Counted from the stretch's first letter, positions 1 to 19,591 are shown. The stretch is 64,000 bases of DNA from Gammaproteobacteria bacterium (GCA_965207165.1 OZ242265.1:278415-342414); one strand, 5' to 3'. Notes: generated from the letters alone by a model not told the origin. Program-made: numbers and translations.

Positions 1-427
1 TTGACGCGCTTTCAATTTCAAATTCCGCATCCAGTAATAACGACATGGCAGGCAATTCGGATGCCGGGTCGGCGTTGACAATGCTGCCGCCTACCGTGCC
101 CTTGTTTCGCACCTGGAAATGGGAAATGTGCTCGATTGCGTGAACCAGTACCGGTATCCGTTGGCGCAGACCTGCATGCTTTTCCGCAAATCGCTGGGTG
201 GTGGTTGCTTTTACTCTTACGCCGCTCTGCTCATCAACAACAAGATTGGGCTGTTCGACGTTGCTGACATCGATCAGGACACTGGGTGTGGCCAACCTGA
301 AATTCATCGCTGCAATGAGACTTTGTCCACCAGCCAGAATCTTTGCATCGTCTCCATGTTCCTTTAACAGGGTGCACGCGTGTTGTAAATTTTCAGCCCT
401 GTGGTAGTCAAACTTCGCTGGTTTCAT
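1..427 (-). CDS. Xanthine/CO dehydrogenase-family FAD-binding (medium) subunit, CoxM/CutM-like; runs off the left edge of the window
   Basis: Not in the ORF track because it is open at the edge. Manual translation from ATG 427 gives MKPAKFDYHRAENLQHA...KILAGGQSLIAAMNFRLATP...HFQVRNKGTVGGSIVNADPASELP, with the AGGQSL and RNxGTxGG..ADP FAD motifs; it lies directly downstream of coxG. Confidence 0.92.
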   Translation of the reverse strand, partial: MKPAKFDYHRAENLQHACTLLKEHGDDAKILAGGQSLIAAMNFRLATPSVLIDVSNVEQPNLVVDEQSGVRVKATTTQRFAEKHAGLRQRIPVLVHAIEHISHFQVRNKGTVGGSIVNADPASELPAMSLLLDAEFEIESAS

Positions 428-446
428 ATCAGTTAACCTGTAACAG

Positions 447-905
447 TCAGTTTTGCATTGGTTCGAAATGATTCCCCATCTCGTCAATGAAGTTCTTGAA
501 AAACTCCCTGGTCATGTGCTTGGAAACTCCCGTCATGACCCTCCCCCCGATGCCGGCGATCAACCCGCCCACATTAGCATCACAGGACCAACTCATCAAG
601 GTGCCGGCAGCGGCCGGTTCAAGGCGGCAATCTACCTCCATGTTCACAAAACCCGGCTTGCCGGCGCCCTCGGCATTCAAAATGTAATGGTGTGGAAACT
701 CGACGTCGGTAACACGAATTTTTCCTTCATAGTCACCTTTAATTGCCGCCACCCCCAGTGAGAGGGTTACCTTGTACCTGCCGTCTTCAGCGGGCTCCAT
801 GGACTTGCAGCCGGGAATGACCCTGACGAGGATATCAATGTCGTGCAGCGCGCTCCATACCTGTGCAACGTCGTACGGGAGTTCGGTACGACCCTCAAGT
901 TTCAA
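447..905 (-). CDS. coxG: CoxG-like SRPBCC protein
   Basis: VWSALHDIDILVRVIPGC...LGVAAIKGDYEG...VGGLIAGIGGR pattern; adjacent to the CoxM-like gene. Confidence 0.85.
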   Translation of the reverse strand: MKLEGRTELPYDVAQVWSALHDIDILVRVIPGCKSMEPAEDGRYKVTLSLGVAAIKGDYEGKIRVTDVEFPHHYILNAEGAGKPGFVNMEVDCRLEPAAAGTLMSWSCDANVGGLIAGIGGRVMTGVSKHMTREFFKNFIDEMGNHFEPMQN

Positions 906-935
906 ATTGTTTTCCTCAGATAAATATCAACCTCT

Positions 936-2651
936 TTAAAATGTAAACTTTAACTCGGTGAACAGCGAATCATTTCTCTGGAATTCGCCAAAGAATGAAT
1001 CCGGATTGCCGGAAATAACGTTGATACCGACACGGGCAGTGAACTGGGCGTTAAAATTATAGCCGACAAGGCCGCGGAACCACGTTGCGCGCTGACGATG
1101 TCCGAACTCATGCAAGCCGAACAATTCCACGTGCAGCGTCTTGCCCGGGAGAAAGTCATTGAACATGAACAGGGTTGCGACATGGCGCGTCCGGTCACGC
1201 AGGCCGTTAAATGCATTTGATTCGCCCCCGATGATGTATCCTGACTCGCCACAGTATCGTTGCGCCGCACAGGCCACCGTACCCAGCGAGGTAAACTGGC
1301 CGGGTGTCGGGTCGCGCAGGATCTCGTCACGCCAGATCTGGGCCGATACAAACCATGGTGTCTTGAACAGGGTCCTGGGACCGATATACAGATATTGGTC
1401 CAGACCTATCAGGGCGGTAACACTGTCGGCCGTGACTGTCTCAATGTCCGGCTCGTAGAAGCGTTGTCCGAAATTGTAGACGAGTTCGCCGCGCATCACC
1501 GTGCCCGCAAACTGGCCGGGCAGGAACTCCAGGGCCTTGTCAAAGGATGCGCCAAGCAAATCATAACGGTGGCGGGTAAAATCGATGCCGCCACCAAACC
1601 CAGCCCTCGGTCCGGCAATTTGGACAGCAAAATTGGTAGCCGCTTGCGGAAGTCGATTTCCAAGAGTGTAAAATGGAATGTCCTCGAACAGGTGTCCGTA
1701 ATGGAACGAATAGGTCATATCCGAAAATGGACCTAAACCGCCACCCGTGCGTGCGCGCCAGCGCACGAAGACTTCGGATTTGTCGAAAGCATCGCCTTCA
1801 TCCCATGCATAGTTGTCGAAGAAATCCGGTTCCTGGAACAGTCCTTCGGATACATTGATGACCTGGTCCGCGAAATCGACGACAGCCAGGGTGTAGGGAT
1901 GTTGCGCTTCTTCTTCATGACGAAAACCGGGGAAACGGGCCGGCGTGTAGTCCCAGTTCCAGATTACCTGCAACTCCTTGGTGATGCCGCCCGGAAGCCA
2001 GTCTACCCTGGACAGGTCATACTTTATGTTCACCATGTCCTGCGGGATCATGAAGCGCTCCTGCTCGAAGGTCAGCGGGTTGCGGAAGTTGCGCGGCGTT
2101 ACGACATCAAGTACGGTCACGCCGTCGGAACGGCCCCAGGTCACTATCTGCCGCCCCGCCCGTATATGCAACGGATGGTAATTGATATCCAGGTAGGCTT
2201 CCCGGACCAGGGGATCCCACTTGTCGTGGAGGCCGTCCTTGAAGTTGGTCTCCCAGTTCTTGGCGATAGAGCTGTCTTTATCTTCGATGTCATACATCCC
2301 GTCATAGTAACCACGGAGTTTTAACACCGGTGTTATATGCTTGATGCCCTTGTATACCATCTCAACGCTCAGTTCGGTACGAAGCGCGTTGACCGTATCG
2401 TAGTCCGACCGGTTGCTCGGAGTACCGAGTGCACCCGGCCCGAGTAAGACGCCAGGGGCAACTGCGAGGGCAAACTCCCTGGCCTGGTCAGGCTTGCCGC
2501 CTATGCGAAAATCACCCAGTACGAAGACCTCTCCACTAATCTCAAGGTCGCCAAATTCATATCGGGCAGAACTTTCAGCCGACCACCCCAACAGCGCTAC
2601 GGCAACAATCGATAACAAGGTGGTGATATAACGTCGATTTGAATTGATCAT
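936..2651 (-). CDS. DUF1302-like outer-membrane beta-barrel protein
   Basis: Signal peptide, REAYLD..LHIRAGRQIVTWGRSDG..VLDVVTP motif, C-terminal aromatic strand ELKFTF. GGAGG RBS precedes ATG 2651 (track start 2744). Confidence 0.8.
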   Translation of the reverse strand: MINSNRRYITTLLSIVAVALLGWSAESSARYEFGDLEISGEVFVLGDFRIGGKPDQAREFALAVAPGVLLGPGALGTPSNRSDYDTVNALRTELSVEMVYKGIKHITPVLKLRGYYDGMYDIEDKDSSIAKNWETNFKDGLHDKWDPLVREAYLDINYHPLHIRAGRQIVTWGRSDGVTVLDVVTPRNFRNPLTFEQERFMIPQDMVNIKYDLSRVDWLPGGITKELQVIWNWDYTPARFPGFRHEEEAQHPYTLAVVDFADQVINVSEGLFQEPDFFDNYAWDEGDAFDKSEVFVRWRARTGGGLGPFSDMTYSFHYGHLFEDIPFYTLGNRLPQAATNFAVQIAGPRAGFGGGIDFTRHRYDLLGASFDKALEFLPGQFAGTVMRGELVYNFGQRFYEPDIETVTADSVTALIGLDQYLYIGPRTLFKTPWFVSAQIWRDEILRDPTPGQFTSLGTVACAAQRYCGESGYIIGGESNAFNGLRDRTRHVATLFMFNDFLPGKTLHVELFGLHEFGHRQRATWFRGLVGYNFNAQFTARVGINVISGNPDSFFGEFQRNDSLFTELKFTF

Positions 2652-2688
2652 GCCTGTTTCCTCCAATATAAGATTTACAATAACCCCA

Positions 2689-18411: not shown

Positions 18412-18429
18412 CTGATGCCTGGACCTGTT

Positions 18430-18852
18430 TCAGTCGAATTGTTGGGCAGCGGTCATTGAGATACTGGAAATACCGTGGCGGTTGAACAGATCCATTATGT
18501 CTACCGCACGTTGCAGTACCACCCCGGGGTCAACGCCAAGCACCACACGCGTATTGTCCGGAGAAATGATACCGGACGCGAACTTTTGCAGGGATTCGAT
18601 ATCGGTAGCTGTGCCGTTCAACCAGATGGTGCCGTTTTCATGTATTTCAACCGAAACCGTTTGCGTATCCGATACGGCGCCGGACGCGCCGCCAGCTTTG
18701 GCAAAATCAACAGTGTGCGGGCGGAAAAAATTTGTCTGCAGCATGAAAAAAACCAGCAGGATAAACACACAGTCTATGAGCGGGGTCAGCGACAAACGCC
18801 TGTTGCGCCGTTCGTACTTCAAAACAGGGAAAGTCCCCGGACCCGTGTGCAT
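18430..18852 (-). CDS. exbD: ExbD/TolR-family protein
   Basis: LTPLIDCVFILLVFFML with the conserved Asp. Confidence 0.9.
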   Translation of the reverse strand: MHTGPGTFPVLKYERRNRRLSLTPLIDCVFILLVFFMLQTNFFRPHTVDFAKAGGASGAVSDTQTVSVEIHENGTIWLNGTATDIESLQKFASGIISPDNTRVVLGVDPGVVLQRAVDIMDLFNRHGISSISMTAAQQFD

Positions 18853-19493
18853 TACGAGGAAGAAACCGGCAGTGTCAGCGCCCGGCTGAATACGTCATTC
18901 ACCTGGTTGGTGAGCACTTCCAGTTTTGACTCGAGCAATGTATGCAATATGGCAAAACAGATCGCTATGGAGAGCCCCACTGCCGTTGTCAGTAACGCCT
19001 CCCAGATGCCACCCGCCAGTGCAGCAGATTCCGCCGCTGAACCAGCGCTGCCCGCCAGGCCCCGGAACGCATCTATCATACCGAGAACGGTACCCAGCAG
19101 CCCGAGCACGGGCGCGAGGGTATAAATCAATTCGAGTATCCTGAGGTTCCGCGCATACTCACGTATGAATTCCGATGAGCGCCGTAATATTTCATCGTAG
19201 AGGTAATCGCCGTCCACCCTGGAATGCTGTTCCAGTACGAAACGCAGGTCACGTGCAATCGTCAGCGATGAACTGTTGATAATGACAAGCGCGCTGTTTT
19301 GTTCTCCGCTGTGCCACTGTTCCACGGCCAGGTAAAGTCGCTTGAGTACGGGTTCACTTGCTTTTGAGAACTGTAGAAACTTCCGCAGGGTCAACGCCAG
19401 CCCGAATATGGAGGCAACGAGTAAAATCGCTACTATCGGCCCTCCCAGCGCAAGCAATGTTTGTATGTCTGTAAATATTTCCAGCATGAGCAA
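18852..19493 (-). CDS. exbB: MotA/TolQ/ExbB proton-channel protein (alternative ATG at 19487)
   Basis: APVLGLLGTVLGMI...GGIWEALLTTAVGL motifs. Confidence 0.93.
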   Translation of the reverse strand: MLMLEIFTDIQTLLALGGPIVAILLVASIFGLALTLRKFLQFSKASEPVLKRLYLAVEQWHSGEQNSALVIINSSSLTIARDLRFVLEQHSRVDGDYLYDEILRRSSEFIREYARNLRILELIYTLAPVLGLLGTVLGMIDAFRGLAGSAGSAAESAALAGGIWEALLTTAVGLSIAICFAILHTLLESKLEVLTNQVNDVFSRALTLPVSSS

Positions 19494-19554
19494 AGGGTTA
19501 TTTGAGGTTGATATCTGCTGCAGGACCTCTATGGCAACACGCTTGATTTATTAC

Positions 19555-19591
19555 TAGAAACGATTCTATACAAATATGCAAACCCTGTAAA
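19555..19591 (-). promoter_or_regulatory. Leftward promoter TTTACA-N17-TAGAAT with overlapping LacI-type operator TAGAAACGATTCTA (19555-19568)
   Basis: The operator matches the 9950 site at 12 of 14 positions and overlaps the -10 element of the exbB operon. Confidence 0.78.

Follow-up and report, generated by a model that had tools for sequence, protein, structure and literature searches.

Local regulation by LacI-family repressors acting on a common palindrome is thoroughly known. In the main text of a comparative genomic study of LacI-family regulons (Ravcheev et al. 2014; PMC4052901), which includes RbsR and the nucleoside regulators AdeR, HpxR, and UriR, operators are even, CG-centered palindromes located mostly 30 to 140 bp upstream of start codons, and most local regulators are autoregulated. 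A second described system is NrtR, which according to Rodionov et al. (2008; PMC2330246) is a local repressor of prs-nadV operons that acts through tandem upstream operators, has a Nudix-like domain, and responds to ADP-ribose. Here we examine a putative LacI regulon in a 64,000-nucleotide stretch of DNA from a Gammaproteobacteria bacterium (GCA_965207165.1 OZ242265.1:278415-342414; "the window" means this whole stretch). The initial annotation of this DNA proposed that a LacI-family regulator encoded at 6758-7810 co-represses four operons, those beginning with NAMPT, cupin, DUF1329, and ExbB genes. Local clustering of the palindromic sites, their conservation in congeners, and their coinheritance with the regulator across phyla support this proposal, and we consider it likely that the sites are operators of the local LacI repressor.

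The locus resembles the local LacI regulons of PMC4052901 in its regulator (a helix-turn-helix [HTH] domain with a periplasmic-binding-protein fold), in the few neighboring operons involved, in the CG palindrome and the distances of most sites from start codons, and in the predicted autoregulation. Unlike the regulators described there, the present one is an equivalog of no named regulator, and unlike the sugar pathways described there, its candidate targets encode NAMPT, HAD, GATase1_like, cupin, PNPOx, ExbBD, and DUF1329/RND/DUF1302 proteins plus a molybdenum-hydroxylase array. The string "nicotin" has no occurrence in the main text of that study; its supplementary tables might list such a group. 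As in the prs-nadV operons of NrtR, the related cassettes of distant phyla pair NAMPT with a second phosphoribosyl pyrophosphate (PRPP) synthetase (Prs) and have tandem upstream sites. In contrast to NrtR, the regulator here is of the LacI type ("LacI" does not occur in PMC2330246), and the gene set extends beyond the NrtR regulon to HAD, GATase1_like, ribokinase, and oxidoreductases and, in this genus, to transport operons. Regulators of the Escherichia coli RbsR, CytR, and PurR type give the best profile and structure matches, but the present protein falls below all equivalog cutoffs. Title and abstract searches covering few subscription journals returned no paper on a LacI-type NAMPT regulator. 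This regulator, its site, and the cross-phylum cassette appear to be new.

A family of palindromic sites in three intergenic regions

As the initial annotation had reported, the 20-mer GAAATTAGAAACGTTACTAT occurs twice exactly, at 9945-9964 (plus strand) and 6639-6658 (minus strand). Allowing up to three mismatches added no third match, and no match arose in 100 shuffles. Within this 20-mer, the 14-mer TAGAAACGTTACTA gave eight strand-matches at up to three mismatches in five places (6640, 9950, 19422, 19555, and 27409), compared with 1.94 ± 1.32 in shuffled controls, where eight was reached in 0 of 100. The core copy TAGAAACGATTCTA was found at 19555-19568, as were all five variants named in the annotation (6616, 6762, 9666, 9745, and 9834), every coordinate of which proved correct. 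Reading of the three intergenic regions, together with a listing of AAnCGnTT cores, yielded eight strong copies and one weak copy, all within these regions and spanning 6616-19568:

6616 to 6629: second candidate operator of the DUF1329 promoter region; variant TCGAATCGTTTATA
6640 to 6653: candidate DUF1329-promoter operator; overlaps the -10 element of TTGCGT-18-TACTAT (minus strand; -35 at 6668-6663, -10 at 6644-6639)
6762 to 6775: site over the last lacI codons; variant GATAATCGTTTCTC
9666 to 9679: candidate operator upstream of the cupin gene; variant AATAATCGTTTCTT
9745 to 9758: candidate operator of the cupin-PNPOx-GATase1_like-lacI unit; variant TATATTCGTTTATA
9834 to 9847: upstream candidate operator in the divergent cupin/NAMPT control region; variant TATAATCGTTTATC; present in 8/9 genomes
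9950 to 9963: candidate NAMPT-promoter operator; TAGAAACGTTACTA; spans the spacer and -10 element of TTGACC-17-TACTAT (9936-9964, plus strand)
10020 to 10033: weak, doubtful copy in the NAMPT 5' leader; 13.9 bits; kept only in closer relatives
19555 to 19568: candidate ExbB-promoter operator; TAGAAACGATTCTA; covers the -10 element of TTTACA-17-TAGAAT (minus strand, 19591-19563)

Oriented alike, the window copies read T-A-(G/T)-A-A-T-C-G-T-T-T-(C/A)-T-A, and the 14-bp CG-centered consensus from 35 unique sites of distant genomes (see below) is TAGAAACGTTTCTA. The central CG that marks palindromic operators of the LacI family is present in all eight strong copies. Site centers lie 30 to 198 nt upstream of start codons, six of seven within about 30 to 110 nt: the 9950 center is about 101 nt upstream of the NAMPT ATG, the 6616 site about 65 nt upstream of its start codon and 24 bp, center to center, from the 6640 site, and the 9666 site about 30 nt ahead of the cupin ATG (9642), close before the GGAGG ribosome-binding site.

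The annotation had also placed each main copy on a plausible -10 element. All four hexamer pairs are readable at the proposed spacing, although a consensus promoter scanner lists only two of them, TTGACC-17-TACTAT (9936-9964, plus strand) and TTTACA-17-TAGAAT (19591-19563, minus strand), the latter a 10/12 consensus match. The DUF1329 promoter hexamers are a by-eye reading that the scanner does not list. At the cupin promoter, TTGACG-17-TAGGGT (minus strand; -35 at 9786-9781, -10 at 9763-9758), the 9745 site lies directly downstream of the -10 element; this position, at the promoter of lacI's own unit, implies autoregulation. The 6762 site stands apart from these promoters and is possibly an auxiliary operator or roadblock.

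Two other features of the window resemble these sites. A second near-palindrome just upstream of the 6762 site (6738-6756) reads AAAGCGATAAATAA here, is partly conserved, and takes the form TTAAGCGATTAATA in more distant congeners (L025, L027, and L028). Separately, a motif-like match at 27409-27422 (GAGAATCGTTACTC) falls between convergent gene ends (open reading frames [ORFs] 26907-27401, plus strand, and 27417-28772, minus strand) and, having no promoter context, is taken as a chance occurrence.

Conservation of the sites within the genus

A LacI orthologue (80 to 97% identity) was found in 8 of the 22 congeners searched, with gene order kept in all eight. NAMPT followed the same distribution, being found in all eight of these congeners but in none of the remaining 14, which marks the cluster as an accessory island. 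The annotation had staked its reading on conservation of the motif upstream of orthologous operons, and this held in the eight congeners. In alignments of the three control regions (9, 9, and 8 genomes), site columns had mean majority fractions of 0.89, 0.91, and 0.79, compared with 0.62, 0.70, and 0.42 for the other intergenic columns. The sites are conservation islands amid diverged spacers, that is, classical footprints.

Individual sites follow this pattern. At the 9950 site, the block ATTAGAAACGTTACTAT is unchanged in 9/9 aligned genomes, the full pattern being GTTGA..(10)..ATTAGAAACGTTACTAT. The DUF1329-lacI spacer is mostly unalignable across nine genomes except for AATCGTTT(C/A)TA, GTAACGTTTCTA, and ATAATCGTTTC: AATCGTTT, at the 6616 site, is unchanged in 9/9, the core GTAACGTT of the 6640 site is kept in 8/9, and ATAATCGTTTC, at the 6762 site, is likewise kept in 8/9, lying just past the lacI stop in most relatives. 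At the cupin promoter the -35 CGTCAAG is unchanged in 9/9 genomes, and the 9745 site scores at least 12.5 bits in 8/9. The ExbB operator was found in six of the eight loci with ExbB (the window and five relatives), where the block TTACTAGAAACGATTCTATACAAAT is identical.

The gene for aldehyde:ferredoxin oxidoreductase (AFOR), located between the NAMPT and ExbB operons, varies among the relatives. Three of the five AFOR-carrying genomes (L024, L027, and L028) have an upstream site, TAGAATCGATTATA. This site is decayed in the window and in L022 (best score in 14398-14539, 1.5 bits), and AFOR is missing from the cluster in three other relatives. This variation in site and gene indicates that regulon members have been gained and lost within one genus.

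The palindrome accompanies LacI and NAMPT in other phyla

To look beyond the genus, we scanned one genome per species for relatives of the LacI protein and kept the best 80 of 312. Among these, 24 loci of other phyla (Actinomycetota and Alphaproteobacteria) encode a LacI with 53 to 62% identity. They come from Nocardioides, Marmoricola, Streptomyces, Prauserella, Pseudonocardia, Leucobacter, Herbiconiux, Solirubrobacterales, Acidocella, and Mesorhizobium, as well as from a Sphingomonadales and a Rhodobacteraceae metagenome-assembled genome. NAMPT is present in 21 of them (74 to 81% identity), GATase1_like in 22, HAD in 20, a PfkB ribokinase in 19, and PRPP synthetase in 16 to 17; NAMPT is present in none of the 47 loci whose LacI is at most 50% identical. 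The constant companions of LacI are thus NAMPT, HAD, and GATase1_like, joined outside the genus by ribokinase and the second PRPP synthetase. The initial annotation had held that the genes of the four operons would look unrelated one by one; this does not apply to the core genes, which form a recognizable, transferable conserved cassette.

Two layouts recur. One comprises NAMPT, a luciferase-like monooxygenase, an aldehyde dehydrogenase, HAD, GATase1_like, PfkB, and Prs, with LacI divergent (annotated in locus L039). The other comprises a nucleoside hydrolase; cupin, PNPOx, GATase1_like, LacI, and PfkB; and NAMPT, HAD, and Prs. In 18 of the 21 loci, a copy of the palindrome scoring 12 bits or more lies no farther than 400 bp upstream of NAMPT, usually at about 85 and about 165 nt. 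The palindrome is AT-rich, whereas these genomes have 59 to 73% GC. In individual loci it also stands before Prs, a flavin-reductase/SnoaL gene, or a nucleoside hydrolase (the last in two loci). A count of 8-mers in the 300 nt upstream of distant NAMPT genes, which used no information from the window, returned TAGAAACC, GAAACCTT, and GAATCGTT as the top words, each in 11/20 upstream regions and 0/20 control stretches, and so recovered the half-site of the window. Cassette proteins are 74 to 89% identical between Actinomycetota and Alphaproteobacteria (L037-L060), and a Mutator-family transposase fragment adjoins the cassette of L039 (11656-12336 of that locus). This high cross-phylum identity, with a transposase beside one copy, suggests recent horizontal spread.

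Outside the cluster, the motif is at chance level

The genome is a single contig of 4.53 Mb with 56% GC. With a matrix built from the window's own sites, which is circular by construction, every genome match of at least 19 bits was one of the eight seed sites. A position weight matrix from the 35 other-phylum sites placed 19555, 9950, 6640, and 6616 as the top four in the genome, with 19555 best. It gave 28 genome matches of 14 bits or more, of which 7 fall within the window's first 20 kb. Observed matches at 14, 16, 18, and 20 bits numbered 28, 9, 4, and 3, compared with means of 22.5, 6.5, 1.2, and 0.17 in six second-order Markov genomes (at 14 bits, about 0.1 per 20 kb). The palindrome that the annotation had taken for an operator is thus not common elsewhere: outside the cluster, matches are at the Markov expectation. 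Because those matches are at chance level, the predicted regulon is local, confined to an accessory cluster of about 32 kb.

The highest-scoring site away from the cluster (genome position 847388; TATTAACGATTATA) was considered as a remote regulon member and rejected; about one such match is expected by chance. Its neighbors are a CobW-type GTPase gene on one side and an amidohydrolase/C-N hydrolase pair on the other. The site is kept in three of five aligned genomes, the present one included, with the central CG lost in G014 and the site disrupted in G005. A conserved stretch of promoter, rather than an operator, is the probable explanation.

The regulator

The product of 6758-7810 is predicted to be a LacI-family regulator, with an N-terminal HTH (PF00356, 69 bits; cutoff, 27) and a type-I periplasmic-binding-protein domain (Peripla_BP_3, 134.5 bits; Peripla_BP_1, 113.1 bits). 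RbsR (9ny7), CcpA, and PurR are the closest solved structures, matching over residues 8 to 339. Its best NCBIfam matches are CytR and RbsR, but it lies below every named NCBIfam equivalog cutoff (score/cutoff: CytR, 253.9/436; RbsR, 221.8/382 and 203.8/531; CcpA, 210.5/442; PurR, 189.1/501; UriR, 171.8/550), and the GalR class does not fit either. The recognition-helix stretch STVSYV(L/V/I)N is kept in 11/11 motif-associated orthologues examined and altered in more distant LacI proteins, L062 excepted.

The genome has three LacI-type HTH genes. The next-best match to the present regulator (C1:540699) is 32% identical and has orthologues (E ≤ 1e-30) in only two of the eight site-bearing congeners; identity to other LacI matches in the genome and its relatives is 30 to 37%. 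On these grounds we consider the local LacI the likely regulator at these sites.

A model for regulation of the cluster

As expected of a local regulon, candidate sites are found at the regulator's own operon and at neighboring operons and are conserved in orthologous loci. We infer LacI binding, a single transcript per array, and the transcript boundaries from sequence, and repression because the operators overlap promoters. In the proposed mechanism, a LacI dimer would bind the CG-centered 14-bp palindrome (TAGAAACGTTTCTA) at sites that overlap or abut the -10 elements of four promoters. At the NAMPT-HAD-SnoaL operon the operator would cover the spacer and the -10 element; at the cupin-PNPOx-GATase1_like-lacI operon it would lie just after the -10 element and provide autoregulation; and at both the DUF1329-RND-DUF1302-CoxGMSL-Rieske array and the ExbB-ExbD-ExbD-vWA-orf763 operon it would sit on the -10 element. 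Bound LacI would block RNA polymerase sterically until a small-molecule inducer released the repressor. The circuit is sound and fairly ordinary local repressor control.

Several points weigh against this model. The evidence for it is comparative. Of the four promoters, two (TTGCGT-18-TACTAT and TTGACG-17-TAGGGT) do not pass the scanner, and promoter-like matches in these regions are not enriched (3, compared with 2.7 and 2.1 in shuffles); the promoter assignments therefore rest on conservation and sequence reading. The congeners are related to one another, so that their counts are not independent. The training sites of the other-phylum matrix were picked with the window matrix, and its ranking is therefore not fully independent, whereas the 8-mer count is. 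Three of the 21 distant NAMPT loci have no site of at least 12 bits: L049 and L050 (both with a weak variant only) and L054 (NAMPT at the locus edge). No site was found over 21 kb at L062, whose LacI is a 48% orthologue and has a similar recognition helix. Finally, the ExbB operator is absent in two relatives, L025 (G005) and L026 (G004), and together with the AFOR variation this runs against a fixed four-promoter regulon. The proposed set of four operons is supported for the window but is not constant, with the ExbB operator lacking in two relatives and AFOR a candidate extra member in three.

Alternative explanations

The first alternative is that only the core is controlled, namely, the NAMPT operon and the autoregulated cupin-lacI operon, the DUF1329 and ExbB sites being weak, auxiliary, or nonfunctional. 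In its favor, only core genes accompany LacI in other phyla; the ExbB site is absent from 2/8 loci; the decayed AFOR site here points to turnover of peripheral sites; and the DUF1329 promoter hexamers fail the scanner. However, the ExbB site is the best-scoring in the genome, covers a 10/12 consensus promoter, and is identical in 6/8 loci with diverged flanks, and the DUF1329 region keeps both of its sites in 9/9 genomes while the spacer around them has diverged. We therefore regard control of the core alone as improbable.

Adjacency does not equal binding, and another factor, either LacI paralogue or a regulator of another family, could instead read the palindrome, leaving the local LacI with other sites. 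The annotation itself stated that AAnCGnTT-like cores are common to several LacI subfamilies, and CG-centered palindromes are general in the main text of PMC4052901. Yet in Actinomycetota and Alphaproteobacteria, too, the motif accompanies this LacI orthogroup and is placed between the LacI and NAMPT genes; the next-best LacI was found (E ≤ 1e-30) in only two of the eight site-bearing congeners; and no other regulator gene is common to the cassettes examined. This makes a different reader quite unlikely.

Least credible, and in our view very improbable, is that the copies are a repeated promoter module or the remnant of a mobile repeat and palindromic by chance: the identity of the 20-mer does take in the -10 hexamer TACTAT, and a dispersed intergenic repeat has one copy 32 nt from the 19555 site, but the sites vary in register to the -10 element (over spacer and -10, on it, or after it), those at 6762 and 9834 lie away from any promoter, the palindromic core and not the flanks is conserved, the motif recurs in GC-rich genomes of other phyla, the 14-mer was not seen in a longer repeat unit and its matches outside the cluster are at chance, and the heptamers of the dispersed repeat are unrelated in sequence to the sites.

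Genes of the cluster

Operation of the local LacI on four promoters would bring the following genes under one control, together with neighbors that have no site here:

2 to 487, minus strand: CoxM; runs off the left edge of the window
447 to 905, minus strand: CoxG (Pfam)
936 to 2744, minus strand: DUF1302 (Pfam)
2689 to 5244, minus strand: MMPL-type RND (Pfam)
5283 to 6557, minus strand: DUF1329/LolA-like (Pfam)
6758 to 7810, minus strand: LacI-family regulator gene, 350 amino acids (aa); last gene of the cupin-PNPOx-GATase1_like-lacI unit
7820 to 8587, minus strand: GATase1_like (Pfam)
8655 to 9233, minus strand: PNPOx-like (Pfam)
9178 to 9642, minus strand: predicted cupin-fold protein, 154 aa; likely start ATG at 9642, GGAGG before it
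10058 to 11506, plus strand: NAMPT (Pfam, NCBIfam, PDB)
11457 to 12164, plus strand: HAD-IB phosphatase (Pfam)
12079 to 12648, plus strand: SnoaL-like protein (Pfam)
12676 to 14397, minus strand: AFOR
14540 to 16831, minus strand: 763-aa protein without family
16858 to 17970, minus strand: vWA protein (Pfam)
17977 to 18411, minus strand: ExbD (Pfam)
18430 to 18852, minus strand: ExbD (Pfam)
18852 to 19493, minus strand: ExbB (Pfam)
19775 to 20830, minus strand: inosine-uridine-type nucleoside hydrolase; without operator here

Pfam at curated cutoffs confirms DUF1329/LolA-like, MMPL-type RND, DUF1302, CoxG, LacI, GATase1_like, PNPOx, NAMPT, HAD, SnoaL, ExbB, the two ExbD, and vWA. The genes that the annotation had assigned to the DUF1329/RND/DUF1302/Cox operon were thus recovered, but the operon is longer than claimed. 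To the left of the window, the minus strand continues with CoxS, CoxL, a Rieske alpha subunit, a small ORF, an SDR protein, and DUF3891, followed by a small ORF, a second Rieske alpha subunit, an unknown protein, an alpha/beta hydrolase, and an Amdase/Asp-Glu-racemase-like protein. Since gaps between minus-strand genes past the left edge are at most 85 nt, this first operon would extend at least 12 kb beyond the window.

Two labels of the annotation fall below Pfam thresholds. "Cupin" falls below the Pfam Cupin_2 threshold (16.6 bits compared with 27.2; E = 0.0066), but the predicted fold agrees with it: the AlphaFold model of the 154-aa protein (mean pLDDT, 72.5; core blocks, 83 to 96) matches TM1459, quercetinase, and EutQ in Foldseek (E of about 1e-7, probability 1.0, query-normalized TM-scores 0.42 to 0.58), so that the model places it among cupin folds. 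"TPR," given for the 763-aa protein, has a Pfam match below threshold only. The product of 10058-11506 appears from its sequence to be a NadV/NAMPT enzyme: it has a full-length match to NF006629 at 509.5 bits (cutoff, 405; the NCBI model name is "nicotinate phosphoribosyltransferase"), has Pfam NAPRTase and NAMPT_N domains, and resembles solved NAMPTs. The best PDB match is bacterial NAMPT 7yqo (390 bits); the human and rat enzymes score about 310 bits. For GATase1_like, ESM Atlas gave only clusters of its own family with generic names, and a literature search for GATase1_like/PF07090/DUF1355 returned only the Pfam database paper.

Past the ExbB operon come the nucleoside hydrolase gene and, on the plus strand, a sugar-type ABC transporter. 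In L025 and L026, about 15 and about 73 nt separate the hydrolase gene from exbB, an adjacency that suggests a functional link between the ExbBD-vWA set and nucleoside hydrolysis. The gap between the hydrolase and the ABC substrate-binding gene (20831-20891) has a block, ATAATAT..CCCGGTAGACTATGTTGCAAAC, common to four aligned genomes. No LacI-type site was found in this block, which may serve the hydrolase/ABC-transporter pair as a promoter or as the operator of a different regulator.

Between the hydrolase gene and the ExbB promoter lies a copy (19600-19761) of the dispersed intergenic repeat mentioned above. The repeat has two arms of tandem heptamers, (A/G)AATTA(A/C/G) repeated three to six times, with the reverse-complement arm 14 to 107 nt away, and could form a long hairpin. 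The genome contains 26 such arm pairs, and a crude gene map puts 24 in intergenic DNA; other copies are at 50229-50295 in the window and near 847420-847600 in the genome. Two metatranscriptomic runs (Logan contigs) contain short contigs 90 to 99% alike over parts of the cluster, with DNA carry-over possible. They touch DUF1302, RND, DUF1329, lacI, NAMPT, exbD, and exbB, reveal neither starts nor strands nor levels, and are uninformative on coregulation. High contig depth at 19344-20000 reflects the dispersed repeat, and contigs there show variant centers.

Likely function of the cassette

The core gene content, taken together with the ribokinase and dedicated PRPP synthetase of the other phyla, suggests that nicotinamide or a related pyridine is handled in a ribose- or PRPP-coupled way. 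Our working reading is that the cassette salvages or converts nicotinamide, or else a pyridine base or riboside related to it, with coupling to ribose or PRPP, and that the transport and oxidation operons would be lineage-specific recruits. The oxidative partners vary: a luciferase-like monooxygenase with aldehyde dehydrogenase, or cupin with PNPOx-like protein, and in this genus a molybdenum hydroxylase, Rieske oxygenases, and AFOR, plus an envelope transport set (DUF1329/RND/DUF1302 and ExbBD). As inducer we can only guess at an intermediate that contains ribose (ribose itself, a riboside, or a ribotide), going by gene content and by RbsR, CytR, and PurR, whose effectors in the main text of PMC4052901 are ribose, nucleosides, or nucleobases, which fits the genes here. 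Nicotinate degradation of the nic type was considered for the left operon (molybdenum hydroxylase, alpha/beta hydrolase, and Asp/Glu-racemase-like protein) and rejected, there being no equivalog-level match; the CoxL-like, Rieske, alpha/beta-hydrolase, and Amdase-like proteins have generic NCBIfam matches below cutoff only.

A bolder reading, which we put forward tentatively and think rather doubtful, is that LacI, NAMPT, HAD, and GATase1_like (with ribokinase and PRPP synthetase elsewhere) form a horizontally transferred cassette for an undescribed pathway. NAMPT would phosphoribosylate nicotinamide or a related pyridine base as an entry or activation step, and the ribosyl moiety would later be removed and recycled; the cassette would then be more than housekeeping NAD salvage. 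In this genus the repressor would have captured the outer-membrane transport set, the ExbBD energizer, and the molybdenum hydroxylase/Rieske array, and in some members a tungsten-type aldehyde oxidoreductase as well. Recurrent aldehyde oxidizers would mark a common aldehyde intermediate: aldehyde dehydrogenase lies within the operon in 11 distant loci, two Pseudonocardia loci contain aldehyde dehydrogenase-like genes with separate sites, and three congeners have AFOR together with a site.

The 14-bp site and its regulator offer a testable pair for genes mostly without a role. GATase1_like, cupin, PNPOx-like, DUF1329, DUF1302, DUF3891, and the 763-aa orphan are tied by them to NAMPT and to ribose/PRPP metabolism. 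Because a NAMPT 74 to 81% identical to those of Actinomycetota has kept its operator, the locus is a clean case of regulator, site, and targets moving together. NrtR is the nadV regulator in the searchable papers, and a LacI-type regulator of NAMPT would therefore add a regulator class to the control of NAD salvage. Cultured Nocardioides, Streptomyces, and Pseudonocardia carry the cassette, and it is in these organisms that its inducer and pathway may be found.

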